Source: Fimbriimonas sp.
GTDB taxonomy: Bacteria > Armatimonadota > Fimbriimonadia > Fimbriimonadales > Fimbriimonadaceae
Direction: 5' to 3'
Length of the DNA: 64,000 nucleotides
NCBI GenBank assembly: GCA_965248555.1
Contig: CBDFJP010000002.1
Coordinates: 2,134,093-2,198,092 of the forward strand
In this document: in pieces, positions 2,422 to 63,471 of the stretch
Layout: each line of letters starts with the position of its first letter
How positions within the stretch are numbered: position 1 is the first letter of the stretch
Position numbers and translations under genes: made by a program
The notes under the pieces: generated by a model
What the model saw: the letters and a program-made list of their open reading frames with translations, nothing else
What the model was told of the DNA's origin: nothing
Database searches by the model: none

Positions 2422-2750
2422 TGAAAGTTCTGCTTGACGAAAATGTCTTTCCCGGCTTCCGCCGATGGCTGGTCGGTCACGAGGTCGACACTGTGTTACA
2501 CATGGGCTGGGATGGCCTCAAGAACGGGGCTCTGCTTGTCAGGGCTATTTCGAGCGGCTTCGAGGTTCTGATTTCGCTTGATCAGTCGATTCCAGACCAG
2601 AACTACCTCGCGAACAAGCCAATCGCGATCTTGACTCTTAAGCTAGATACTCGTACCAAGACCACCTACCAACGAGCGGTTGAACCGGTTCTGGAAGTTC
2701 TTGGAGAAATCAAATCGGGGGAGATCAGGACCGTCGTGATCCCAACGTGA
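2421..2750 (+). CDS. DUF5615 / PIN-like protein (toxin-like partner of DUF433)
   Basis: The GTG at 2421 shares one base with the TAG of the DUF433 gene. VKVLLDENVFPGFRRWL... is the typical DUF5615 N-terminus. Confidence 0.65.
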   Translation: MKVLLDENVFPGFRRWLVGHEVDTVLHMGWDGLKNGALLVRAISSGFEVLISLDQSIPDQNYLANKPIAILTLKLDTRTKTTYQRAVEPVLEVLGEIKSGEIRTVVIPT

Positions 2751-3160
2751 TCTTCCAAACCCTCGAACTTGTCCTTGCTCTCGATCAGCCACGCCGAATC
2801 CTGATCATCGAGGACAAGGTCTCGTTTGCCATTCGACTTCGCACATTTCTGGAGAAGAAGGGGCATACCGTCCATGCCTATGCCGGAGTTGAGAGGCAAG
2901 GCTCGCGGCTACTCGGGATTGAGAGCTATCACCCACTCGATCCAGACCTCATCGAGCCGAGTCACTACGAAGTCTGCTTCCTTGACCACTACTTTGCGGG
3001 CGACGATTTCAACGGCTCCACCTTCCTCGGGGTGCTGGGCAACCACCCGATAAGGGTCTGCGGGATGTCTTCGGTGGATTCAGCTAACGAATCAATGCGC
3101 CGTTGCGGCGCGATCACTTCGATCCGAAAAGACAAGCTCGATCAGCTTTTGACTTTATAG
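2747..3160 (+). CDS. stand-alone receiver (CheY-like) domain protein, tentative
   Basis: GTGA overlap with the previous stop. RILIIEDKVSF (acidic pair), EVCFLDHYF (candidate phospho-Asp) and VCGMSS are arranged as in REC domains. Confidence 0.4.
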   Translation: MIFQTLELVLALDQPRRILIIEDKVSFAIRLRTFLEKKGHTVHAYAGVERQGSRLLGIESYHPLDPDLIEPSHYEVCFLDHYFAGDDFNGSTFLGVLGNHPIRVCGMSSVDSANESMRRCGAITSIRKDKLDQLLTL

Positions 3161-3699
3161 CGCAGCTGAACCAGACCGCTGTCGAACGCCTCGGCGTCGA
3201 TCAGCTTGAGCGAAGTCTGCGGGAATCCGCCGGGGAACAGCGGCACCCCTTTGCCGAGCAGAACGGGGTGAACCGAGACCACGACTTCTTCGACCAACTT
3301 CCCTTCCAAATACCCCTTCACCAGCTCTCCGCCGCCCACTAGCCACGACCGCTTCACGCCCTGCTCCTTGAGCATCTTTTCGAGGTCGACGAGTGAGCCG
3401 TTGAAAAAAGCGGTATCTGGAGTCGTGATCTCTAGCTTTGCCGAGCGGGTTACGACCAGAGTGCGCTTGCCCGAATACGGCCATCGGCCCATTCCACGAA
3501 CCACGTCATACGTTCCCCGGCCCATGATGAGGGTGTCGACCGACTTGTAGAATTCGTCGAATCCGTAGTCGTTGTCGGTGAACTGCCACGACAAATCATC
3601 ATCCGGCCCGGCGATGTAGCCGTCAAGACTGGTCGCGATGAAAAGAGTCGTGAGCACGCCCTCAAGATACCCTGGCACAACACCTTCTGCCGGAGGCAT
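3142..3699 (-). CDS. dihydrofolate reductase family protein (RibD C-terminal domain type)
   Basis: Internal ATG at 3699. Motifs LFIATSLDGYIAGPDDDLSW, TLIMGRGTY and WLVGGGELV. The 3' end overlaps the convergent receiver gene by 19 nt. Confidence 0.75.
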   Translation of the reverse strand: MPPAEGVVPGYLEGVLTTLFIATSLDGYIAGPDDDLSWQFTDNDYGFDEFYKSVDTLIMGRGTYDVVRGMGRWPYSGKRTLVVTRSAKLEITTPDTAFFNGSLVDLEKMLKEQGVKRSWLVGGGELVKGYLEGKLVEEVVVSVHPVLLGKGVPLFPGGFPQTSLKLIDAEAFDSGLVQLRYKVKS

Positions 3700-3708
3700 A
3701 CTCAGATC

Positions 3709-4143
3709 GTGGGTAGCAATCTGGATCCGTACGACTGGCCTAGGAGAAGGAAACTTGCCACGATCTTGGTAGGCAATTCTGCTCCGATTTTGTTTTTTGC
3801 AAGTCGGCTCTCTGCAGCTCCTCACCCTTACGACTTCAACTACCTTCCCTTGGCCTCAATCTACTGCCTCACGATTTTTTTAGGGATCATGCTTGCATCG
3901 CGAGTGCGAATGTCCTATCTAGACAGGATCGGTGCCGGCGCCGTGATTTTTTCAATAGCCTATGGTGTGGGTGTTTTGTGTTCACGGTTGCCGTTCCTCT
4001 TCCCTACCCGCTACTCCTATCTGGCACTCGAACGAAATTTATGGTTTTTGGGCATGGTGTTTCAGTTCATCCCGATTGTGTCTACGCTCTTCTGGCTTCA
4101 AGCGAGGGTTAAGATGATCGATCCTGAAGGACAGCGAAGTTGA
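3709..4143 (+). CDS. hypothetical small membrane protein; start uncertain (ATG 3889 possible)
   Basis: ORF with 3-4 hydrophobic segments. No recognisable family. Confidence 0.35.
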   Translation: MGSNLDPYDWPRRRKLATILVGNSAPILFFASRLSAAPHPYDFNYLPLASIYCLTIFLGIMLASRVRMSYLDRIGAGAVIFSIAYGVGVLCSRLPFLFPTRYSYLALERNLWFLGMVFQFIPIVSTLFWLQARVKMIDPEGQRS

Positions 4144-12547: not shown

Positions 12548-14194
12548 GCCCTCTTCATCCCCAAAATCAAAGTGTCGCCCGTCCACCCCGACGCCCGGCG
12601 TACAGATGACAGGAATCCCAAGTGCGATCGCCTTCAATGCCACCGCTGGTCTGTTTACAAAAACGGAACCGAAATAGGCAACAGAAGCCGATTCCATCGG
12701 GTGTGAATCTCCATCGACAACAGTGACGCCGCTCCAAAAGTCGGTTCCCTCAAAATTGTTTCCCTCCACGGCCACAACCAAGCCCATTTTACGAGCGACA
12801 TTTCGAAGGGCATGTGCGCCCGTTCGCCCGAGCGTCGGTCCCCCGAACCACACGTATCTCATGGCCAGACTAACTGGGCCGGGCCGAGGAGAGGGCCGAT
12901 TCCACGCAATTAGTTCGGCGCCCCTTATGCCCTGCAAGCCCAGCCATTTTGCAACAAAAGGGTGCGCGGTAACGACGCGATCCGCCTCTCTCAAGAGCGC
13001 CATCTCTCGGCTCACCGCGTCGGGATCGGCGCGAAAATCGCGCAAGTTTTCGCACTCCGGGTAATGCGCGGAAGCAGAATCCAGAAGCTCATGCAGAAGA
13101 GCCAACGGTGGAGTTGTACACCACACCTCTACCCTCCGCCCGCCCAGAACCCCCTGCTTACTCAGCGTGTCCAAAAACTGTAGCTCAGTGACAATCGAGT
13201 CAGCTCGGTAGTCCACCCGGCGCGCATAAGCCGCCGCAAATCGCTCGGCATACTCAAGAGTCGTTCGTCTCCGATCAGGGGCCGTTTTTGCGCCACGCAG
13301 TGCCAGCGGCCGCTGGATGGTCAGTAACTTCAATTCCTCAGCGGAAACGTGCCAGTCGTATCTCGAGGCTCGTCGCCACGGAGTAAAAACTTGGGCGTTC
13401 TCGGCCTGAACAAGCTCCCGAAACTCCGGAAACACGGCGTCGAGAATATACGCTCGGCGCGATGTCACTGAACTAAGCGGCGTTGCCAGTTGATGCTCGA
13501 AACACCCCTCTTGCCCACACGTCATGCAGCTATTTGGCCTCAGACCCTGGTTTAGCACACGGAGCGGCATCAAGCTTTCTGGCACCTTTTTACTGACTTC
13601 TGCAGACCAGAACTCCACCACCAACTCGCTCCCCGTAATGCGGGCCTGAATCTGGGTTCGCCTCGGAACCGAGAACCGGAGGTCGATATAGTTCCAAAAC
13701 ACAGTCGCATCCCGGTCAAGCTCGGAGGCACTTCCCGGTAGCCGCGAAGTGTGCCGATGACGCTCAATGATCGTCGCCCCAGACTTGAGTGCCAAATCGT
13801 ACAGCGCATTTGAGAGTTGACAAAGCCCGCCACCAACCGAAGGAATGATGCACCCTTCGCGAAGCTCGCGCCCCTCAACAAACCCCCGCCGCCGGGTCGC
13901 GCGACCAATGATCTGCCAAAAGCTGAACTGATGGCCCGCCTCCAAAACCACCCCGTTCAGCGAAGCACAAGCGACTCGGAGATTCTGAATCTTCCCAAGC
14001 TCCAGCCCAAGCTCTCTTGCGTCGTCTTGTGTACGCAATGGCGAGTGATGTCTTGTCAGATGAGTTAATTCTGGGCAAGAAAGGTTTCGCTCAAACTTGG
14101 GCCGACGAGAATTCTTTAGAGCACGGCGAAGTTGGAGAAGCCTTGCTTTGAATAGAAAAAGCACTTGGCCGCGCAGTGAGTGCCTTTCCATCAT
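12491..14194 (-). CDS. VanW-domain protein with a C-terminal GT-B-like extension
   Basis: VanW core FSFWQIIGRATRRRGFVEG...GGGLCQLSNALY...HRHTS. The C-terminal part ends in a glycosyltransferase-like ALGIPVICTPGVG segment. Confidence 0.7.
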   Translation of the reverse strand: MMERHSLRGQVLFLFKARLLQLRRALKNSRRPKFERNLSCPELTHLTRHHSPLRTQDDARELGLELGKIQNLRVACASLNGVVLEAGHQFSFWQIIGRATRRRGFVEGRELREGCIIPSVGGGLCQLSNALYDLALKSGATIIERHRHTSRLPGSASELDRDATVFWNYIDLRFSVPRRTQIQARITGSELVVEFWSAEVSKKVPESLMPLRVLNQGLRPNSCMTCGQEGCFEHQLATPLSSVTSRRAYILDAVFPEFRELVQAENAQVFTPWRRASRYDWHVSAEELKLLTIQRPLALRGAKTAPDRRRTTLEYAERFAAAYARRVDYRADSIVTELQFLDTLSKQGVLGGRRVEVWCTTPPLALLHELLDSASAHYPECENLRDFRADPDAVSREMALLREADRVVTAHPFVAKWLGLQGIRGAELIAWNRPSPRPGPVSLAMRYVWFGGPTLGRTGAHALRNVARKMGLVVAVEGNNFEGTDFWSGVTVVDGDSHPMESASVAYFGSVFVNRPAVALKAIALGIPVICTPGVGVDGRHFDFGDEEGLEKLLLEILFVDRQRSNG

Positions 14195-54905: not shown

Positions 54906-55259
54906 GGGGGCGTCAGGGTTCGACAGGACTGAAGCGACTCACCGTTGCGAGCCGTGGATTCTCGTTGGCCACGTAAAAAACGAGAAAAAAATAACTGCAA
55001 ACAACAACTTTGCATTCGCAGCCTAAGTAGCCGCGCATGAGCCAGTTCTGAGCCAGTAAGAACTGATCCTCGTGTAGCCAAATCTGGATCGCTAGGGCGA
55101 GCTTCTGTTCGTAGCAGACCCGGCTAAACAAAACCGAACTAAGGGTGCGCTAGGCGGTCTCGGCAGAGGCGCACTTCGAAAATCCAAACTGAGAAGACGC
55201 TCGTGGTAACGCTGGGAAGGCGGTTTTGGAAGGGAGTTCAATTCTCCCCGCCTCCACCA
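54906..55259 (+). ncRNA. ssrA: tmRNA (SsrA), tag ANNNFAFAA
   Basis: 5' GGGGGCGTCAGGGTTCGACAGG and 3' GGAGTTCAATTCTCCCCGCCTCCACCA. The acceptor stem has G3-U70. The tag reading frame gca aac aac aac ttt gca ttc gca gcc taa is at 54997-55026. Confidence 0.95.
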
Positions 55260-55556
55260 GTTTATGTTGTTTAGGTCTTTCGCCAATTCACGAACTTCCC
55301 ACCCCCATCCGGCGTTCAAATAAGTGTGAAGCAAACTGCCAAGCGAGTTCGGGTGTCGTTGGATTCTCCCACGACGAAAAAGGAGATGATTCTGCCGTTC
55401 TTCGTAGTGCCCGAAGCTGGCGACGACATTGTCCTCTTCGGCTCCCACTGGGATGTGCAGGCCCACAAAGTCAGCCAAAAACCCGATGATCAAGGCTGCA
55501 ACCACTCCGTCCAACTCCGCCTTGCGAGCTAGGCCTTTTCAGCGCAATTCAGCGAC

Positions 55557-55572
55557 TGTGACCCAAGTCACA
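55557..55572 (+). promoter_or_regulatory. perfect CRP-type box TGTGA-cccaag-TCACA upstream of gene 55633
   Basis: Seen directly. Its centre at 55564.5 is about 42 nt upstream of the TSS implied by the -10-like TACAGT at 55595-55600. Confidence 0.6.
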
Positions 55573-55598
55573 TCCCCCCGCTAGACCCCGCCTGTACA

Positions 55599-55632
55599 GT
55601 GTTTCCAATACCCTCGCCGGTATAGGAAACAC
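55599..55632 (+). promoter_or_regulatory. 34-nt palindrome / stem-loop abutting the start codon of gene 55633
   Basis: gtgtttcc-a-atacc-ctcgcc-ggtat-a-ggaaacac forms 13 bp with one A-A mismatch. The 3' arm contains the AGGA Shine-Dalgarno-like element and ends at the base before the ATG. Confidence 0.5.
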
Positions 55633-56538
55633 ATGAAACTCAAACAGACAAAATCGTCCATCCCAGCAGTTGGCCTAGCTCTCGCTTTCGCTCTTTCCGC
55701 TGGAGTCCTCGCCCAGAACTCTGGTCAAGCCAAACCGAGCCAAGAGCAGGGCTACACCAGAGAAAATCCATTTGAATTCTCCGCTTTGGCGAGCAAGAAC
55801 ATTACGTTCAACGGTAAGCCTGCGATCCGAACCGACAGCCAGGACGCGGCGATGCAGAGCCAATTTGAAGTTGCCGACAAGGCATTCGCTAACGCAAAGA
55901 GTTCTGCCGCTCCACCCTACTTCAAGACGGTTTTTTACGCCGGCTACGGCGATAAGAACCAGCGTCCAAACCAAGCAGAGGACGTTGCCACTAACCACGG
56001 GCCCTGGCCAAGTTCGCCCACGATTAACCCTTCGTTCGAAGCCCAATCCGACTCAATATGGCCAAATTCGACAGTGATGGCCGTCAGGATGAACCTCACG
56101 GGATATCCGGTGTTTAACCCGGCAAAGGTGCGGGAAGCAAGTCTCAAGATCGACATATTCTTCGACCCGACTCGCGCACAGGGTTCTAGCGCCCTCTACG
56201 CATGGGATGATCAGACGAGTAATCCCATTCCCTTAATGCTACCAACGCAATGGAATTTGTTCCGGAACCGAGCCGCGTCCATGTTTGGTGGTCAAGCCCG
56301 ATGGATATCGGTAGTACTCGACTTGACACCCTCGAATCCGCTCCCCGTTGCCTATATGTATGACATTAATAGCTTTGGAAACCCCATTGCGAATCGCTGG
56401 ATGGGGCCCTTTACGAGCTTCCCAGCCGCATCTCGGAGCAGCCTTTTGCAGGCAGCGGCGAACGGCAACTTACAACTATATGCGCTCCCCCATCTCCCTG
56501 TCAGCCATGCAGAACTGGTCATCAAAGAATCGTTCTGA
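55633..56538 (+). CDS. secreted hypothetical protein
   Basis: Signal peptide MKLKQTKSSIPAVGLALAFALSAGVLAQ. No family recognised. Confidence 0.6.
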   Translation: MKLKQTKSSIPAVGLALAFALSAGVLAQNSGQAKPSQEQGYTRENPFEFSALASKNITFNGKPAIRTDSQDAAMQSQFEVADKAFANAKSSAAPPYFKTVFYAGYGDKNQRPNQAEDVATNHGPWPSSPTINPSFEAQSDSIWPNSTVMAVRMNLTGYPVFNPAKVREASLKIDIFFDPTRAQGSSALYAWDDQTSNPIPLMLPTQWNLFRNRAASMFGGQARWISVVLDLTPSNPLPVAYMYDINSFGNPIANRWMGPFTSFPAASRSSLLQAAANGNLQLYALPHLPVSHAELVIKESF

Positions 56539-56558
56539 CCTGAGCGAACTTACAACCT

Positions 56559-57632
56559 ATGGCTCAGGTCCCACCTGAGCCAAGAGTCACCTTCCCGGAG
56601 CAAACAATGTTGTCCGCATCAACGATCCTCTTCACCCTCCTCGTAACAAAGTCACAGAAAGGTCAGCCAAAGCCACCTAAATCCCAACCGCCGCCCATCC
56701 AAGTCCCTTGGCAAGGCCCCAAACGGCTCATCCAAATGGGGGCCTTCGAGCTAAAAACAACCCGAATCACCAGCGGACAAGGCGGCGTCTCCTTCTCTGC
56801 CTCCTCCGGAAATGTCTCGGGCGGTGGAGCCTCTTCTGGCCCGCAATCTCTCGATATCGCCGACCCAATGGTGTTCAGCGCCGGAGTGGCAGACATTGCC
56901 AAAACCGAGTTCGCCGCGTTCCGAGGATTCGATCTCATCGAACCCGCCCCACCTGGCCAAGATGGCACCAACTCAACTCCGCCCGAACGCCTCCCTAGGC
57001 CCCAATTCATCCTCAACGCCACGATCTCGGACATTACAGTCCGAACAAAGTCAGGCGGAATTCGAATCGGCCCCATCGGCGGCGGCAAAGAGAGATTTTC
57101 CAACAAGGTCGTCATCGAAATGCGCTTCATCGACCCCGAAACCCGAGTGATCATGGTCGGATGCAAGGCAACTGGCGAGAAATTTTCGGAAGCAAACACA
57201 ATGGCAGTCTTGGCAGACAGCGCCTTCGGCGAAGTCCCCGTTGCCAGCTTCGGCGAGTTTCAGGAGAGTCCCCTCGGCGAAGCCACCCGAGCCGCCCTTC
57301 AAGACGGACTCAAGCAGCTCTGCGCCGAACTGATGAAACTCGGCTGGACCAGCGAAGTGATCGACATTCAAGAAGCCGACGGAGTCAAAACGGCACTCTT
57401 CGAAGTCGTCGAAGGCCTAAAAGTCGGCGACATCATCGAATCCATCACGCCCGGACGCATCATTAGAGACCCCAAATCGGGACGTAGGCTCGGCGAGACA
57501 AAAGCCCAAATCCTCGGTCAGCTCAAAGTGACGGCGATCAACGGAAGCCTGGTCGAAGCCATCGGCATTGACGGATTCGTCCCTGAAGTCGGACACATCA
57601 TCCGACCCAAGCCAACAGTAAAACAAAAATGA
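56559..57632 (+). CDS. possible CsgG/HfaB-like envelope protein (low-confidence family call)
   Basis: N-terminal hydrophobic segment. FILNATISDITVRT...VVIEMRFIDPETRVIM...SPLGEATRAALQDGLKQL resembles the CsgG core. A likely start is the ATG at 56607. Confidence 0.45.
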   Translation: MAQVPPEPRVTFPEQTMLSASTILFTLLVTKSQKGQPKPPKSQPPPIQVPWQGPKRLIQMGAFELKTTRITSGQGGVSFSASSGNVSGGGASSGPQSLDIADPMVFSAGVADIAKTEFAAFRGFDLIEPAPPGQDGTNSTPPERLPRPQFILNATISDITVRTKSGGIRIGPIGGGKERFSNKVVIEMRFIDPETRVIMVGCKATGEKFSEANTMAVLADSAFGEVPVASFGEFQESPLGEATRAALQDGLKQLCAELMKLGWTSEVIDIQEADGVKTALFEVVEGLKVGDIIESITPGRIIRDPKSGRRLGETKAQILGQLKVTAINGSLVEAIGIDGFVPEVGHIIRPKPTVKQK

Positions 57633-57641
57633 CGATCGTAG

Positions 57642-60191
57642 GTACAATCGCGCCTATATACCTTCCTGCACACCGACCTCGAAGGCAGTAGTGCCGCGTG
57701 GGATATTGACCCCCAAAAGGCGAAGTCCGAAATCGCCCGCCTGTTCCAGCGCACCGAAACCGCAACCTTCAAGGCGGGCGGACGAGTCTACAAAAAGCGG
57801 GGCGATGGTCAAGCCGCCGTCTTCCAAAACAGCGACGATGCCCTCAACGCGATCCACGACCTTGCCAACGACCCAAACGCCGTCGAACTGCTCCCTCGGC
57901 TCCGACTCGTTCTCCACTGCGGCGAGGCCGAAGACCTCGGCGACGAGTTCTTAGGTGCCTGCCTCAATGTCGTTGGCCGACTGCTCGACGCCGCTCACCC
58001 CGGCCAAATCCTCGCCACCGACGAGTTTTTGCGTACGTGCAAAAATCCACCGGGTTCTGCTGAGCTCGATAAGCTAAGGCTCCGAGGCATCGCCTCGCCA
58101 ATTCGAGTCTTCCAACTCAATCTCGGCGGATCGCAAACGGAGTTCCCGCCCCTGAGGGGTTCCGCCCCGCCGACCAATCTTCCCCGGCTCCCCGCCGACT
58201 TCTTCGGGCGCAAGTCCGAACTCAACGACTTGACCAAGCTGATTATCGAAAAAAAGCTTCCCCTAGTCACCGTGCGCGGGTTCGGTGGAGTCGGCAAAAC
58301 CACCCTCGCCACTCAGTTCGCCCACAACGTATCAGACCACTTCCAAAACCGGATCTGGTGGGTCAGAGCCGATCACGCATTTTCCGCCGAACACCTCCTT
58401 GAGCAAATCTGTCACGCCCTCCGGTTCGAGCAAAACGCGACGGAACTCCTCGGTGCCCTCCCCGACATCTGCCAAAAACCAAGTCTCCTCGTCTTCGATT
58501 GCTTTGAATCAGCCGTAGAATTCGGAAGTGTAGTCACCGAAATACTGGAAGCCGCGCCCCAACTTCAGGCCGTCGTCACCAGCCGAAGACGGCTAGAACT
58601 CGACCAAGAATACGTCCTCGAACTTGGCGGAATCGTCAACACCACCAGCCTAAGACCCAACTGGGAGCCGGGCTTCTCCCTCTTCGAGCGCGCAGCCAAC
58701 CGAGCAAGTACTGGATTCAAACTCGGCGTGGCAGATCGCCCCCAGATCAAGTCCATCATCACCCGTGTCGACGCAATCCCCCTTGCGATCCAGCTCTGCG
58801 CGGGGAGGGTCAACCACATGACCCTCGCGCAAATCGATTCACAACTCGCCAAGAACCTTCTCGCAACCCTCAACCGAACCACCACAACCACCGACCGCCA
58901 CGGAAGCATGTCCACCGTCATTCAGGCATCCTTCGACCTGCTCAGCGAAGGCGAACGGGAACTCCTCGCAATGCTCGCGGCATTCCGCAAAGGCTTCGAT
59001 CTCGAAATTGCCAAACAAGTCACCCAGTACCGCAACTTCTTCGACACCTTCGGAGCACTCACAAACGCCTCCATGATCTCGCGGCAGACGGATGGCACGA
59101 CCCAACGCTTCCGCCTCCTCGACCCCGTCATCGAGTTCATCCGCGGGGTCGTCGCCCTCCTCCCAAGCCACCATTTTCAGCGGAGATTTTGCCATCACTA
59201 CGAGGCGTGGGCAATCAAAATGTCCAGTACAACCGACCGACAGGACTCGCTCACCAACGAAGTCGGAAACCTCGTCTCAGCCATCGAGTGGATGTGGTCA
59301 ACCCCAGAACTGACCCCGAACGACGAGTTCGTCAACCGAGTCCCACGGTTCCTCTACGACAACGGCTTCCTCTTCGAGTTCGACCTGCTTGTCGAAAGGA
59401 TTCTCGGATTCCACCACTTCACAGGCGTTGAGGCAAAAGCGGACGTGTACTCACTGGTCGCTGTTCGACACCGAACAGGCAAAAACTTGGAAGAAATGCG
59501 AACCGCGCTGAAACAGCGGTGGGAGTTGTTAAGGCCCCTACCGATTACAGGCCGAACCATTGATGCTCTTGGAGAAATCTGCGTCGCCGCCTGCGAGCAT
59601 CAGCACTCAGACTCAATAGACCTAGACCGTCTGTTGGATGAGTTTACGCTCACGCGCTCACAGTCGAGCGACGGCGAACTGCCCAGAAACTTGGATTGGG
59701 ATGCCGTTGAGCTGAACCTCCTTTTCAACTGCCGACGTACCGCCGACGCTCTCATGCTGGCCTCTGAGCTCATCACACGACTCAAAACACTGGAGCCTAA
59801 ATACTTCGGCTTTGCCTCCCGAATCACTGCCGAAATCTCACTACAAAGCGGCCAATTCCAAAACTCCGTCGCCATGTACACACGGCTCGCTCATAGCACC
59901 CAACCCCACTCACAGGCCGTCGGAATCTATGGCCTAGGGAAGTGTTCTGTAGCAATGGAAAAGTGGGAAGTTGCTACATTGTGCGTCGCGAGCCTCTACT
60001 CCTTCGAGCGCTCCGAAGCCCCCCGAGCCCATGCCTTCGCCGCAGACCTGAATAGGCTACTGCCACACTCTCCTAGTCGCGCCGAACCCATCCAAGACCC
60101 GGAAGATCGCGCAATGATCGTCTCCACAATTTTGGACTGTTTGCAGAATTGTGATCACGATCACACACAGGAATATACCAATCCCTTATAG
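57642..60191 (+). CDS. class III nucleotidyl cyclase domain + STAND/NB-ARC-like P-loop NTPase + helical-repeat protein; start codon unresolved, possibly frameshifted
   Basis: The open frame starts after TAG 57639-57641. Cyclase motifs FLHTDLEGSS, KKRGDGQAAVF, LRLVLHCGEAE and NVVGRLLDAAHPGQIL lie upstream of the first canonical start (TTG 58029, ORF-track start). Walker A is GFGGVGKTTLA and Walker B-like is LLVFDCFE. The C-terminal ~400 aa are helical-repeat-like. Confidence 0.7.
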   Translation, partial: VQSRLYTFLHTDLEGSSAAWDIDPQKAKSEIARLFQRTETATFKAGGRVYKKRGDGQAAVFQNSDDALNAIHDLANDPNAVELLPRLRLVLHCGEAEDLGDEFLGACLNVVGRLLDAAHPGQILATDEFLRTCKNPPGSAELDKLRLRGIASPIRVFQLNLGGSQTEFPPLRGSAPPTNLPRLPADFFGRKSELNDLTKLIIEKKLPLVTVRGFGGVGKTTLATQFAHNVSDHFQNRIWWVRADHAFSAEHLLEQICHALRFEQNATELLGALPDICQKPSLLVFDCFESAVEFGSVVTEILEAAPQLQAVVTSRRRLELDQEYVLELGGIVNTTSLRPNWEPGFSLFERAANRASTGFKLGVADRPQIKSIITRVDAIPLAIQLCAGRVNHMTLAQIDSQLAKNLLATLNRTTTTTDRHGSMSTVIQASFDLLSEGERELLAMLAAFRKGFDLEIAKQVTQYRNFFDTFGALTNASMISRQTDGTTQRFRLLDPVIEFIRGVVALLPSHHFQRRFCHHYEAWAIKMSSTTDRQDSLTNEVGNLVSAIEWMWSTPELTPNDEFVNRVPRFLYDNGFLFEFDLLVERILGFHHFTGVEAKADVYSLVAVRHRTGKNLEEMRTALKQRWELLRPLPITGRTIDALGEICVAACEHQHSDSIDLDRLLDEFTLTRSQSSDGELPRNLDWDAVELNLLFNCRRTADALMLASELITRLKTLEPKYFGFASRITAEISLQSGQFQNSVAMYTRLAHSTQPHSQAVGIYGLGKCSVAMEKWEVATLCVASLYSFERSEAPRAHAFAADLNRLLPHSPSRAEPIQDPEDRAMIVSTILDCLQNCDHDHTQEYTNPL
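60150..60165 (+). promoter_or_regulatory. second perfect CRP-type box TGTGA-tcacga-TCACA, inside the 3' end of the STAND gene
   Basis: Seen directly. The centre is at 60157.5 and a -10-like TATAGT lies at 60187-60192. The implied TSS near 60199 puts the box at -41.5 and coincides with the in-frame ATG at 60200. Confidence 0.55.
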
Positions 60192-60193
60192 TT

Positions 60194-61414
60194 ATGAGCA
60201 TGGGAAGAAACAATCCAATCAAACGCAAAGAGATCAAACCAGGACCACGGCCTCGCCGAATCGTGGAGCCCCTCGGAATCGGCACATTCGTCACTCTCGA
60301 TTACGGCGTTAACGTGCAGAGTCGCAACGAGTACGCCGTCATGCTACTCTCCGACAACTGGGCCTCCCTCCGGGACCTCCTCTACGATCCCCAGGCGTTC
60401 GTCGACGCCTGGAGACAGCGCTACACATGGACGCCAACGATGACATTCGAGTCGGGTACTTCCACGAAGTCAATGCCAGACTGGAAGCTAGTCGGACCAA
60501 TCACGATTCAAATCGAACCTCTCACTGTTCCCACTCCTTCAAACCTTCTCCTTCTCAGTGGGCTAACTTCGATGTATCCCGAGCTCAAAACTGTGATTGC
60601 TGCCGGCGCACTAGGTAATCAGGACTTCGCCGCTAAACTGACCAAAGCGCTTGTTCCCGCAGCTCCCTCTGCCCCTCGAGTCCGAAGGAGCAATCCAATG
60701 AACCTCGCACCAATGAGGGCTGCAAACCCAGTCACGCTCGATTCGTGCACGACCGAACCGCCGCCAAAGCCGCTCGCGTACATTGTCGAGTTTGCCGTGC
60801 TTACCCGGATCATGACAATCAAGTATGTTCCTCAGCCCGAAACTTCGCCACGCTGGTTCGAAGCCATCGGAACGTTCGAGCAGCAACGAGGCAATCCTTC
60901 TGCGAAGACCAAAGATGATTTCACTGGAATCAATTTGAACAATGTCGCAGGAACGGACCTCACGTTCATGCACTTCGACATCGCGTTCGACGAGCTAGTA
61001 CGGCCCCATACCCATGACGATGTATCAAGACGACGGGCAGATTTTGTCATGAGCTATCTTGAGAAGTTCGACTTCTTTATGGCGATGAAGCGCCCCTCTG
61101 ACGTAGCAACTCTCGCAACCCTCAAACCCGATGACAACAACCACGTTTTGGACCAACCGGGCTACACAAATCCGTATCCGATTACGAAGCTCAAAATGAT
61201 TGGTAATCAAAGAGGCCCCAGTGTCACCATTGACTCGGTTTACTCGCCTACAGACCCGCAACTTCAGAAAGTAGCACCTCCCTTCATTTGTGTTCTCGGC
61301 GTTACGGTGCCGGTCACGGATGCAAATGGAAATGTCATCTATGATTCGAACGGTAATGTGAATGAGTGGACAACTAATGGGGTGATCGTCAAGTCTTACC
61401 AGGCCCCCGCCTAA
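60194..61414 (+). CDS. orphan hypothetical protein (406 aa)
   Basis: ORF 2 nt after the STAND gene stop, with a basic N-terminus MSMGRNNPIKRKEIKPGPRPRR. There is no SD and no family recognised. The alternative ATG at 60200 may be a leaderless start. Confidence 0.6.
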   Translation: MSMGRNNPIKRKEIKPGPRPRRIVEPLGIGTFVTLDYGVNVQSRNEYAVMLLSDNWASLRDLLYDPQAFVDAWRQRYTWTPTMTFESGTSTKSMPDWKLVGPITIQIEPLTVPTPSNLLLLSGLTSMYPELKTVIAAGALGNQDFAAKLTKALVPAAPSAPRVRRSNPMNLAPMRAANPVTLDSCTTEPPPKPLAYIVEFAVLTRIMTIKYVPQPETSPRWFEAIGTFEQQRGNPSAKTKDDFTGINLNNVAGTDLTFMHFDIAFDELVRPHTHDDVSRRRADFVMSYLEKFDFFMAMKRPSDVATLATLKPDDNNHVLDQPGYTNPYPITKLKMIGNQRGPSVTIDSVYSPTDPQLQKVAPPFICVLGVTVPVTDANGNVIYDSNGNVNEWTTNGVIVKSYQAPA

Positions 61415-61418
61415 CCCA

Positions 61419-62060
61419 ATGGCTGAAAACGCACAGTACCTCGCCAAAGTTGATCTATTCGCGAGCCTCCCGGCGGAGCGATTAGATCAACTTGGCGCTC
61501 TCTGCACCCGGACCAAACTCGCCCCCCAAGAGATTCTCTTGCGTGAAGGCGACCCGGGAAGCACCCTCTATTTCATTATCGGCGGAGTCCTGAGGGTCGA
61601 GCGATACACCGCCCGAGGCGGTGTGGTCCACCTAGCCATGCGCAGTGCCGGGGACACCATCGGCGAACTCTCGATCCTCACCGACGGCTACCGCTCAGCC
61701 TACGTCGTCGCCCACACCTCCGCCAAACTCCTCGTCATGGAGCGCGCCGCGTTCCTAAAGTACGCTCTGACTGAACCCGAGGTCACCCTCGCCCTCCTCG
61801 CCCGCCTCGCCGAGCGCGTCAAAGAAGCCTCGGAACTGGTCGTCTCCCGATCCGCCGCTTCCGTGGAGGACCGAATCCTCCAACTCATGCTCTCCATGGT
61901 CGACTCTGAAGGCGAAATCACCCTCAAAGAGTCCCAAGCCGAACTCGCAAACCGAATCGGCTGTTCCCGAGAAGCCCTCAGCCGCGCCATCGCAAAACTC
62001 GTCGACGACCGCCGCCTAGACCGCCTCAGCCCAAAAACCTACCGATGGACTGCAGTCTAG
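61419..62060 (+). CDS. CRP/FNR-family cNMP-binding transcriptional regulator (CRP-like recognition helix)
   Basis: cNMP pocket IGELSILTDGYRSAYVVA. The HTH GCSREALSRAIAKL compares with E. coli CRP GCSRETVGRILKML. Confidence 0.85.
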   Translation: MAENAQYLAKVDLFASLPAERLDQLGALCTRTKLAPQEILLREGDPGSTLYFIIGGVLRVERYTARGGVVHLAMRSAGDTIGELSILTDGYRSAYVVAHTSAKLLVMERAAFLKYALTEPEVTLALLARLAERVKEASELVVSRSAASVEDRILQLMLSMVDSEGEITLKESQAELANRIGCSREALSRAIAKLVDDRRLDRLSPKTYRWTAV

Positions 62061-62334: not shown

Positions 62335-63471
62335 TCAATTTGGTTTCTCGTTGGGAACATTGATGACGCACCGGAATCCGGTGTGGCAGAGTCCGGTATC
62401 GGGAGAACTTTTCATTCGGGCAGACACCCGGTAGCCAGAGCAGTAGCACTCGGCGCACAGGAACGAACCACCTCGTACCACTCGCTTGACCATGCCGGGC
62501 TCGTCGGGATCGAACGAATCTTGTGGACCAGCGGGGTTGATTTTCGAGGCGGTTTTGTATGCGTCAGGGCGGTAGAAGTCAAGGCACCATTCCCACACGT
62601 TTCCGCTCATGTCGGACAGTCCGTAGCCGTTTTTGGGAAACGAACCGACGGGCGATGTGGTGGCGAACCCATCGGTGTTGTCATTTTTGGTCGGAAATGC
62701 CCCCTGCCAGAAGTTTGCTCTCGGCTTCCCTTCCTCGACAGGTGTGTCGCCCCAGGCGTACCGATTCGAGTCCTTACCGCCTTTGGCGGCTCGCTCGAAC
62801 TGAGCTTCGGTGGGGAGAGATTTCTTTGCCCACTTAGCATATGCCATCGCATCATCCCAACAGACTTGGACGACAGGGTGATTCATCCGTTTTTCGATGT
62901 TTGAATCGGGTCCCTCAGGATGCAGCCAACTGGCTCCAGGGACATACTTCCACCCTTCACCTTCGGCGAAAACGAGGGAACCGGGAACGAGGCTAGCGGC
63001 GGGGACTCCGGGGAAGTCTTTGGCGTCGGGCGTCTTTTCGGCGACTGTTTTGTACCCGGTGACATCAACAAACTCCTTGAACTGTTGATTTGTGACTTCG
63101 TGGATGTCGATCCAGAAGGGGTCGAGTTGAATCGTTTGGACGGGCTCTTCGTCTGCTCGTCCAGCTTCGGAGCCGAGGGTGAACCCGCCAGCCGGAATGA
63201 GGACCATCCCTTCAGGGCTCGGGCTTGGGCCGGCAGCTACTGGCTTCGGTTGGCAACCAGCCACGAACAACCTGCAAACGCAGGCCAAGGAAATAGCTCC
63301 AAGCGCGAGGAGTCGGTTGCTCAACGTCGGAATTCTGACACTTCCAGCGGAGATTGAGGGTGAATACATAAGAAATATTCGTTGTTGCTGCTGAGTGCCC
63401 AGGTGAGAATTCGTCCGAGATCGACTGAGAAGGTCCGGCAATTTGTCTCGCAACAGCCAGGTTCTTCTCAA
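62335..63471 (-). CDS. formylglycine-generating enzyme family protein (paralog of 10519-11532), lipoprotein
   Basis: HEVTNQQFKEFV, LPTEAQFE, GNVWEWCLDFY and RGGSF; lipobox FVAGCQ. The likely start is the ATG at 63369. Confidence 0.9.
   Translation of the reverse strand: MRRTWLLRDKLPDLLSRSRTNSHLGTQQQQRIFLMYSPSISAGSVRIPTLSNRLLALGAISLACVCRLFVAGCQPKPVAAGPSPSPEGMVLIPAGGFTLGSEAGRADEEPVQTIQLDPFWIDIHEVTNQQFKEFVDVTGYKTVAEKTPDAKDFPGVPAASLVPGSLVFAEGEGWKYVPGASWLHPEGPDSNIEKRMNHPVVQVCWDDAMAYAKWAKKSLPTEAQFERAAKGGKDSNRYAWGDTPVEEGKPRANFWQGAFPTKNDNTDGFATTSPVGSFPKNGYGLSDMSGNVWEWCLDFYRPDAYKTASKINPAGPQDSFDPDEPGMVKRVVRGGSFLCAECYCSGYRVSARMKSSPDTGLCHTGFRCVINVPNEKPN

Follow-up and report, generated by a model that had tools for sequence, protein, structure and literature searches.

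What might two CRP-type palindromes be doing in one gene cluster of Fimbriimonas sp., a member of the Armatimonadota? The question arises from a 64,000-nucleotide (64-kb) stretch of contig CBDFJP010000002.1 (assembly GCA_965248555.1, positions 2,134,093 to 2,198,092 of the forward strand), which as a whole we call the window; positions below refer to it unless another locus is named. A first-pass annotation had pointed to a TGTGA-N6-TCACA box with both half-sites perfect around a 6-nucleotide (nt) spacer, followed by the hexamer TACAGT, and the sequence agrees on both (box 1 and the P1 hexamer in Table 1). Box 1 precedes a co-directional unit of five genes, a 6.5-kb cassette directly downstream of the transfer-messenger RNA (tmRNA) gene. 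These genes encode a 301-residue protein, a CsgG-like protein, a class III cyclase joined to a STAND nucleoside triphosphatase (NTPase), an orphan 406-residue protein and a Crp/Fnr-family regulator. We consider it probable that box 1 and a second palindrome in the cassette, box 2, are operators of that regulator, which would switch on two promoters, P1 and P2, by a class II mechanism in response to a ligand made by the cyclase.

An exhaustive scan of both strands finds exactly two perfect copies of the pattern in the window, box 1 and box 2. The first-pass annotation had announced the second copy, 4.6 kb downstream in the same cluster, and had seen by eye no other; the scan agrees on both points. 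It had also estimated 0.06 perfect matches per window by chance, and the mean over shuffles that preserve dinucleotides is 0.04, with two or more sites in none of 100 shuffles. Extending the search to imperfect copies returns no one-mismatch site anywhere in the window and 14 two-mismatch sites, compared with 20.3 expected for matches with at most two mismatches, so degenerate copies are at chance level. A weight matrix, trained solely on boxes from other loci and then run over the window, scores box 2 at 23.7 bits and box 1 at 18.9 bits; the best remaining position reaches 13.5 bits, which is what random windows reach on average as their maximum (13.3, standard deviation 2.1, maximum 19.1). 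The background was taken from 1.03 Mb of unrelated loci (L006-L073, which contain distant Crp-family genes in unrelated contexts and come from a scan of a genome collection with a Crp alignment), and it holds one perfect and nine one-mismatch sites. Both window boxes are promoter-proximal, lying 35-76 nt 5' of start codons. A two-mismatch site at 61357, 5' of crp, was tried as a further box and dropped, as orthologues do not have it.

The distance from each box to its -10-like hexamer is nearly the same at the two sites: TACAGT begins 22 nt 3' of box 1 and TATAGT 21 nt 3' of box 2. In E. coli class II promoters 21 nt separate the end of the 16-base-pair (bp) core from the -10 hexamer; P2 has exactly this spacing and P1 is one base longer. 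The ideal core of E. coli CRP sites, TGTGATCTAGATCACA, is matched by box 2 (TGTGATCacGATCACA) at 14 of 16 positions. Counted from the core to the -10 hexamer's second base, the distance is 22 bp at P2 and 23 bp at P1, and a distance of 22 bp is exclusive to class II promoters (PMC10187061). The predicted transcription start of P1 is an A at about 55607, 7 nt past the hexamer, and if this start is assumed, the centre of box 1 (55564.5) falls at -42.5. At P2, the hexamer position places the box centre at -41.5 or -42.5, with a predicted start at about 60199-60200. A -35-like hexamer 17 nt upstream of the -10 is absent from the window sequence at both P1 (ATCCCC) and P2 (CACACA), so both promoters look activator-dependent. 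Two other geometries for box 1 were rejected. A divergent promoter on the minus strand would lack a -10-like hexamer at class II distance from box 1, and the minus-strand open reading frame (ORF) at 55092-55514 runs into the tmRNA gene; this frame of 140 codons, which lies opposite the spacer from the tmRNA gene to box 1, is probably either spurious or what is left of a gene. A class I reading through TATAGG (55619-55624) would centre the box at -66.5 and so on the wrong face of the helix, and TATAGG is not conserved.

The arrangement recurs outside the window. Seven further diverged lineages, found on metagenome contigs, all carry the box, and their Crp proteins are 40-77% identical to that of the window. 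The L001 group (L001, L083 and L085; Crp 63% identical) has the gene order of the window. L074 (77%) has two paralogues of the 406-residue protein, and L088 and L089 are short contigs with relatives of it. L005 has a member of this family that is 28% identical and no adjacent crp gene. In L090-92 (40%) the cassette is rearranged, with the 303-residue and CsgG genes inverted and divergent from crp, and in L090 a single box in the divergent spacer lies 22 nt from a TAnnnT hexamer. Orthologues of box 1 are found 5' of the first gene in L001, L083-87, L005 and L090, and those of box 2 in L001, L004, L083, L085, L074, L088 and L089, as well as in L005 with two mismatches.

In these relatives the sequence of the hexamer changes and its distance from the box hardly does. 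At P1 the gap is 22 nt in the window, L001, L083 and L085 (TACAGT in each) and on the minus strand of L090 (TAGCTT), and 21 nt in L005 (GATCAT). At P2 it is 21 nt in the window (TATAGT), in L001 and L004 (TAAGAT) and behind the two-mismatch box of L005 (TAGCAT), and 22 nt in L074 (TAGAAT), L088 (TAGGGT) and L089 (TAGTAT). A TAnnnT hexamer therefore stands 21-22 nt past the box in 12 of 13 promoters, which amounts to nine of ten lineage-independent cases; from base composition, TAnnnT at either of these fixed offsets is expected by chance at about 0.02 per site. Between the window and L001, the DNA around the box and hexamer of P1 shows no conservation. The boxes are thus non-random, diverged cassettes keep them at a fixed distance from a -10-like hexamer, and the class-II-like pairing that the first-pass annotation had proposed is supported by its recurrence in seven diverged clusters with unconserved flanks.

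We asked whether the palindromes could lack a regulatory role altogether, arising by chance, as a by-product of coding, or as the relic of an element integrated beside the tmRNA gene. Box 2 does lie within the STAND ORF, and box 1 is 298 nt past the tmRNA gene, a classical integration site. However, box 2 is translated as C-D-x-D-H in the window and L001, whereas in L074, L088 and L089 the TGA within its TGTGA half-site terminates the upstream gene; being kept in two reading frames and outside ORFs, it is constrained as DNA and not as protein. The box is also conserved in contexts that have no tmRNA gene. A genomic island at the tmRNA gene was rejected because no repeat of the tmRNA 3' end was found, the 2-kb bins of the cluster (56001-62000) have the G+C content typical of the window, and other genomes hold the cassette at other sites. 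Assembly duplicates of one sequence are ruled out by the range of Crp identities, and the shuffled expectation speaks against chance. We regard a non-regulatory origin as highly improbable.

A site over the -35 region raises a second alternative, in which the Crp homologue, whether or not it carries ligand, blocks RNA polymerase and turns the cluster off. Occlusion fits the position of both boxes, and some relatives carry boxes at typical repressing positions, namely 8 nt ahead of TAGAAT in L001 and L085 and, in L074 and L090, 11 nt ahead of the start codon of crp. What speaks for activation instead is that neither window hexamer has the -35-like partner at 17 nt and that the spacing is strictly 21-22 nt, which is a class II signature (PMC10187061), whereas occlusion would allow variable placement. 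Repression as the function of box 1 and box 2 therefore seems unlikely to us.

The P2 side offers a further view of where transcription may begin. The listed ORF of the orphan gene starts at ATG 60194, upstream of the predicted P2 start, which makes ATG 60200, 7 nt past the hexamer, the likelier start codon. In five of six lineages (the window with ATG 60200, L074, L005, L088 and L089) the P2 start codon lies 6-9 nt past the hexamer. On the assumption that transcription starts at the usual 7 nt past the hexamer, this closeness implies leaderless mRNAs in these five, with the box centre near -42. If the start codon is itself taken as the start, the box centre is 41.5-43.5 nt away in the window, L074, L005 and L089; in L088, where the codon is 9 nt past the hexamer, the centre would be at -45.5 if the mRNA is fully leaderless, or else there is a short leader. 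P2 of the L001 group has a 75-nt leader with AAGGAG instead. The compact layout of hexamer and start codon occupies 60187-60202 in the window, 1007-1021 in L074, 9908-9922 in L005, 222-239 in L088 and 964-979 in L089, and it is also seen at 9989-10003 in L090, where the gene of the 406-residue family has the hexamer and close start codon without a CRP box.

Which protein would read the boxes? The regulator encoded in the cluster contains PF00027 (60.9 bits) and PF13545 (32.9 bits), both over their cut-offs, and the solved structures that it matches best are those of E. coli CAP. Against the E. coli CRP equivalog NF008732 it scores 66.3 bits with a cut-off of 266, which makes it a member of the CRP-FNR superfamily and not an orthologue of E. 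coli CRP. Nonetheless, it has the DNA-reading and nucleotide-contact residues of CAP: in the alignment, E83, R92, S93, A137/S138, R184, E185 and R189 correspond to CAP E72, R82, S83, T127/S128, R180, E181 and R185, and only the T127 equivalent is changed, to alanine. In particular, the R-E-x-x-x-R of the recognition helix is preserved, and R180, E181 and R185 are the residues with which CAP reads the G, G and C in TGTGA (PMC10187061). Among the orthologues the contact residues are invariant except at S93 and A137, both of which are threonine in L001 and L004. The Crp orthologues of L001 (11183-11824) and L004 (1907-2548) thus have Arg-Thr (RT) for Arg-Ser (RS) in the phosphate-binding cassette. 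The CgrA protein of Rhodospirillum centenum, which prefers cyclic GMP (cGMP), has this RT variant (PMC10187061). With RS in the window and CAP, and RT in the L001 group and CgrA, the signalling nucleotide may differ among lineages.

It is also conceivable that these are real CRP sites served by a different, global CRP paralogue whose gene lies in another part of the genome, with the cluster regulator directed to other DNA. L005 has boxes and no crp beside them, and many CRP proteins across phyla recognise TGTGA-N6-TCACA (PMC10187061). We nevertheless judge this reading to be decidedly improbable, because box and this Crp subfamily occur together in six of seven lineages, even where the cassette has been rearranged, because the cluster regulator has the exact R-E-x-x-x-R helix, and because the remaining 57 kb of the window has no above-chance site, which favours a local regulon.

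The presumed source of the ligand is encoded in the same unit. A cyclase domain makes up the N-terminal 160 residues of the 57642-60191 ORF; a profile built from three orthologues matches the cyclase 3mr7 with E = 2.8e-16, and the L005 and L090 orthologues match Pfam Guanylate_cyc directly. The invariant residues are D12, K51, D55, N109 and R113, which represent the metal-binding aspartate pair, the substrate lysine and the asparagine/arginine pair. The substrate may be ATP or GTP, as the second specificity position could not be assigned. The NB-ARC domain that follows scores 45 bits (Pfam cut-off 23.5). The reading frame is open from 57642, right after TAG 57639-57641, and has no canonical in-frame start (ATG, GTG or TTG) before TTG 58029, which lies past the cyclase domain. 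The ATG at 57629 overlaps the TGA of the CsgG-like gene and belongs to a different frame. In L001 the orthologue has a GTG start just ahead of the YxFLxTDLxGSS motif that it shares with the window. The missing start could come from a frameshift or an error in sequencing, from use of a non-canonical start, or from decay of the gene.

Taken together, these observations support a model in which the cassette is its own switch; in this best explanation, we infer that the regulator binds both boxes and activates, rather than represses, two operons from the predicted starts in answer to a cyclic nucleotide. The STAND protein would sense a signal and control its own cyclase domain, and the resulting cyclic nucleotide, probably from this class III enzyme, would load the Crp homologue. 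Loaded Crp would then occupy each box over the -35 region and recruit RNA polymerase in class II fashion. P1 would drive the genes for the secreted 301-residue and CsgG-like proteins and probably that for the cyclase-STAND protein, and P2, probably through a leaderless mRNA, the orphan gene and crp. As crp begins 5 nt past the orphan gene and has no conserved site of its own, activation of P2 would feed back positively on crp.

Several points weigh against this model. The extra base pair between box 1 and its hexamer departs from canonical class II spacing, and the geometry is judged throughout by E. coli promoter rules, which may not be those of the host phylum. Other Crp paralogues may exist elsewhere in the genome, and L005 has boxes and no adjacent crp gene. 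With no canonical start for the cyclase, the local source of the nucleotide may be impaired. In L001, L085 and L087 a box lies 8 nt 5' of TAGAAT, before the cyclase-STAND gene, and in two unrelated lineages exactly 11 nt separate the end of a box from the start codon of crp (L074, 3918-3933; L090, 13264-13279). Activation is unlikely from such positions, so the regulator may also repress.

Relatives thus have extra boxes that the window does not; apart from those of L074 and L090 just named, they stand at 7366-7381 in L001, 4535-4550 in L085, 2096-2111 in L087 and 2741-2756 in L083. Their positions suggest negative feedback on the cyclase and crp in those lineages.

A separate element lies between the P1 hexamer and the ATG at 55633, which opens the 301-residue ORF. 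This two-tier inverted repeat folds at -17.9 kcal/mol (z = -5.8). Its 5' outer arm starts at position 5 of the hexamer and occupies the promoter discriminator, and its 3' outer arm spans the Shine-Dalgarno-like AGGAAA. The hairpin is found in four independent lineages (the window; L001, L083 and L085; L005; L090), in which the arms differ and stay complementary (Table 1), with z-scores from -2.3 to -5.8. With a transcription start at 55607, the P1 transcript would not contain the 5' arm, and the hairpin could hide the ribosome-binding site only in transcripts that read through from upstream, for example from the tmRNA gene, after which we detected no intrinsic terminator. It is less likely that the true start lies upstream and that TACAGT is not a -10 element, given the P2 data and L090, where crp coding region lies upstream of the box. 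A precedent exists in IS10, in which fold-back inhibition relies on upstream sequence that is present only in read-through transcripts and pairs with the ribosome-binding site of the transposase gene, so that translation is limited to transcripts from the proper promoter. The P1 hairpin would be alike in that its 5' arm, in the discriminator, lies upstream of the predicted start; the P1 element differs in not being a transposon. If real, the hairpin would be a natural example of promoter-specific translational competence.

One can go further and read the whole as a portable sense-and-respond cassette. Here, the STAND protein would oligomerise on its ligand and bring cyclase domains together as active dimers; Crp loaded with a cyclic nucleoside monophosphate (cNMP) would switch on a pair of class II promoters, one giving a leaderless mRNA, with positive feedback on crp; the anti-Shine-Dalgarno arm embedded in the discriminator would tie translation of the first operon to the promoter of origin and silence read-through from the tmRNA gene; and the outputs would be a CsgG-like channel together with orphan proteins that are secreted or placed at the surface. 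We offer this joint claim only tentatively and would not expect all of its parts to hold together.

Table 1. Positions of the boxes, promoter elements, hairpin arms and genes discussed in the text (window numbering unless a relative is named; a dot marks a feature without strand).
Feature	Position	Strand	Remarks
CRP-type box 1	55557-55572	.	TGTGAcccaagTCACA (TGTGACCCAAGTCACA); candidate activator site of P1; based on sequence reading, matrix and orthologous boxes
-10-like hexamer of P1	55595-55600	+	TACAGT
CRP-type box 2	60150-60165	.	TGTGATCacGATCACA (TGTGATCACGATCACA); candidate activator site of P2; within 3' end of STAND ORF
-10-like hexamer of P2	60187-60192	+	TATAGT; overlaps STAND stop codon
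Two-tier inverted repeat	55599-55632	+	outer arms 55599-55606/55625-55632; inner arms 55608-55612/55619-55623
Outer arm, 5'	55599-55606		GUGUUUCC
Outer arm, 3'	55625-55632		GGAAACAC
Hairpin arms, L001	5356-5394		5' GUGAACC; 3' GGUUCAC
Hairpin arms, L005	5510-5540		5' GUUCC; 3' GGAAC
Hairpin arms, L090	near 13200-13236	-	5' UUACCG; 3' UGGUGA; G-U pairs included
tmRNA gene	54906-55259	+	same direction as cluster; tag peptide ANNNFAFAA
301-residue protein	55633-56538	+	first gene of P1 operon; signal-peptide-like N-terminal segment; no Pfam family
CsgG-like protein	56559-57632	+	PF03783, 25.1 bits (cut-off 20.8)
Class III cyclase-STAND protein	57642-60191	+	cyclase, NB-ARC/STAND NTPase, long C-terminal region
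Orphan protein, 406-residue family	60200-61414	+	ORF listed from 60194; likely leaderless start ATG 60200
Crp/Fnr-family regulator	61419-62060	+	cNMP_binding and HTH_Crp_2; probably co-transcribed from P2
FGE-sulfatase gene	62335-63471	-	convergent; closes the cluster

The predicted outputs of the cassette belong largely to rare families. For the 301-residue protein only three relatives were found, and its AlphaFold2 model (predicted local distance difference test score, pLDDT, 56) has no fold match in the PDB with E of 0.001 or less. The CsgG match covers profile positions 91-207 of 210, and the protein is 58% identical to its L001 orthologue. The 406-residue family numbers 45 representatives in a set of 1.84 billion proteins and has no match in the scan of the genome collection, and the AlphaFold2 model of the window member is unusable (pLDDT 30). 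In L074, the two paralogues of this family are at 2546-3763 and 1019-2392, and one of them has a twin-arginine-type signal, RRTFLGNTVATAAGIGLAS, a hint at a role for the family outside the cytoplasm. An exact look-up of the window Crp and of the 406-residue protein (P0001) returned no identical record, and a literature search on this gene combination gave nothing specific. Ten other genes of the window, scanned against Pfam, included no marker of the phylum. The PADLOC defence models returned for the cluster proteins only a generic similarity of the cNMP-binding domain to Pycsar effectors and a 14-bit match of the STAND protein. Inside the 5' end of crp, at 61447-61493, there is a 16-nt inverted repeat (AAGTTGATCTATTCGC / GCGATTAGATCAACTT, 15-nt loop), which is probably incidental, because L001, L004 and L074 do not have it.

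The type of switch proposed here is well understood in bacteria, the setting is unstudied, and the box itself is not the novelty. The model would extend class II CRP architecture, with spacing conserved at the level of the base pair, to a lineage that is uncharacterised and a regulon that is local and dedicated, not global. Because the cyclase-STAND sensor, the Crp reader and both promoters lie in one 6.5-kb unit, the system is compact enough to be reconstituted and tested, and two very rare orphan families and a CsgG-like protein gain a predicted inducing signal. Its interest comes from the rarity of a self-contained cyclase-STAND/Crp cassette, the clean conservation of its promoters and the possible insulating hairpin.

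Comparison with known systems places the cassette between several described designs. Like E. coli class II promoters of the galP1 and melR type, P1 and P2 have a TGTGA-N6-TCACA core over the -35 region, 21-22 nt to TAnnnT and no -35 hexamer; unlike them, P2 seems to yield a leaderless mRNA, and the host is no enterobacterium. The regulator shares with E. coli CAP a cNMP-binding domain and a helix-turn-helix (HTH) with R-E-x-x-x-R, but it is a distant relative (66 bits against a cut-off of 266), so diverged that the surfaces AR1-AR3, which contact RNA polymerase in activation, cannot be made out in its sequence, and its regulon, with two sites in 64 kb, appears local instead of global. The sensor resembles actinobacterial proteins of the class III cyclase-NB-ARC/ATPase-TPR type (M. 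tuberculosis Rv0386, Rv1358 and Rv2488c; see also the survey PMC2447327), in which an N-terminal class III cyclase is followed by a STAND NTPase and helical repeats. This likeness suggests that the cyclase is gated by nucleotide-dependent oligomerisation. The mycobacterial proteins end in a LuxR-type HTH of their own, whereas the output of the window protein would pass through a separate Crp.

The closest analogue among described arrangements appears to be the gcyB-gcyC-cgrA operon of R. centenum, in which cGMP and CgrA control encystment and the operon promoter has a perfect CAP-type box, TGTGAactgctTCACA (PMC10187061). In both cases cyclase genes and a CRP-family regulator are kept together, which in the window would likewise make an autoregulated second-messenger module, and the likeness to CgrA extends to the RT variant of the RS phosphate-binding motif in the Crp orthologues of the L001 group. 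No orthology of the window genes to gcyB/C or cgrA was apparent past the family level, though no test aimed at it was made. However, the window cyclase is fused to a STAND NTPase, there are two box-dependent promoters, and the cassette adds a CsgG-like protein and two orphan families.

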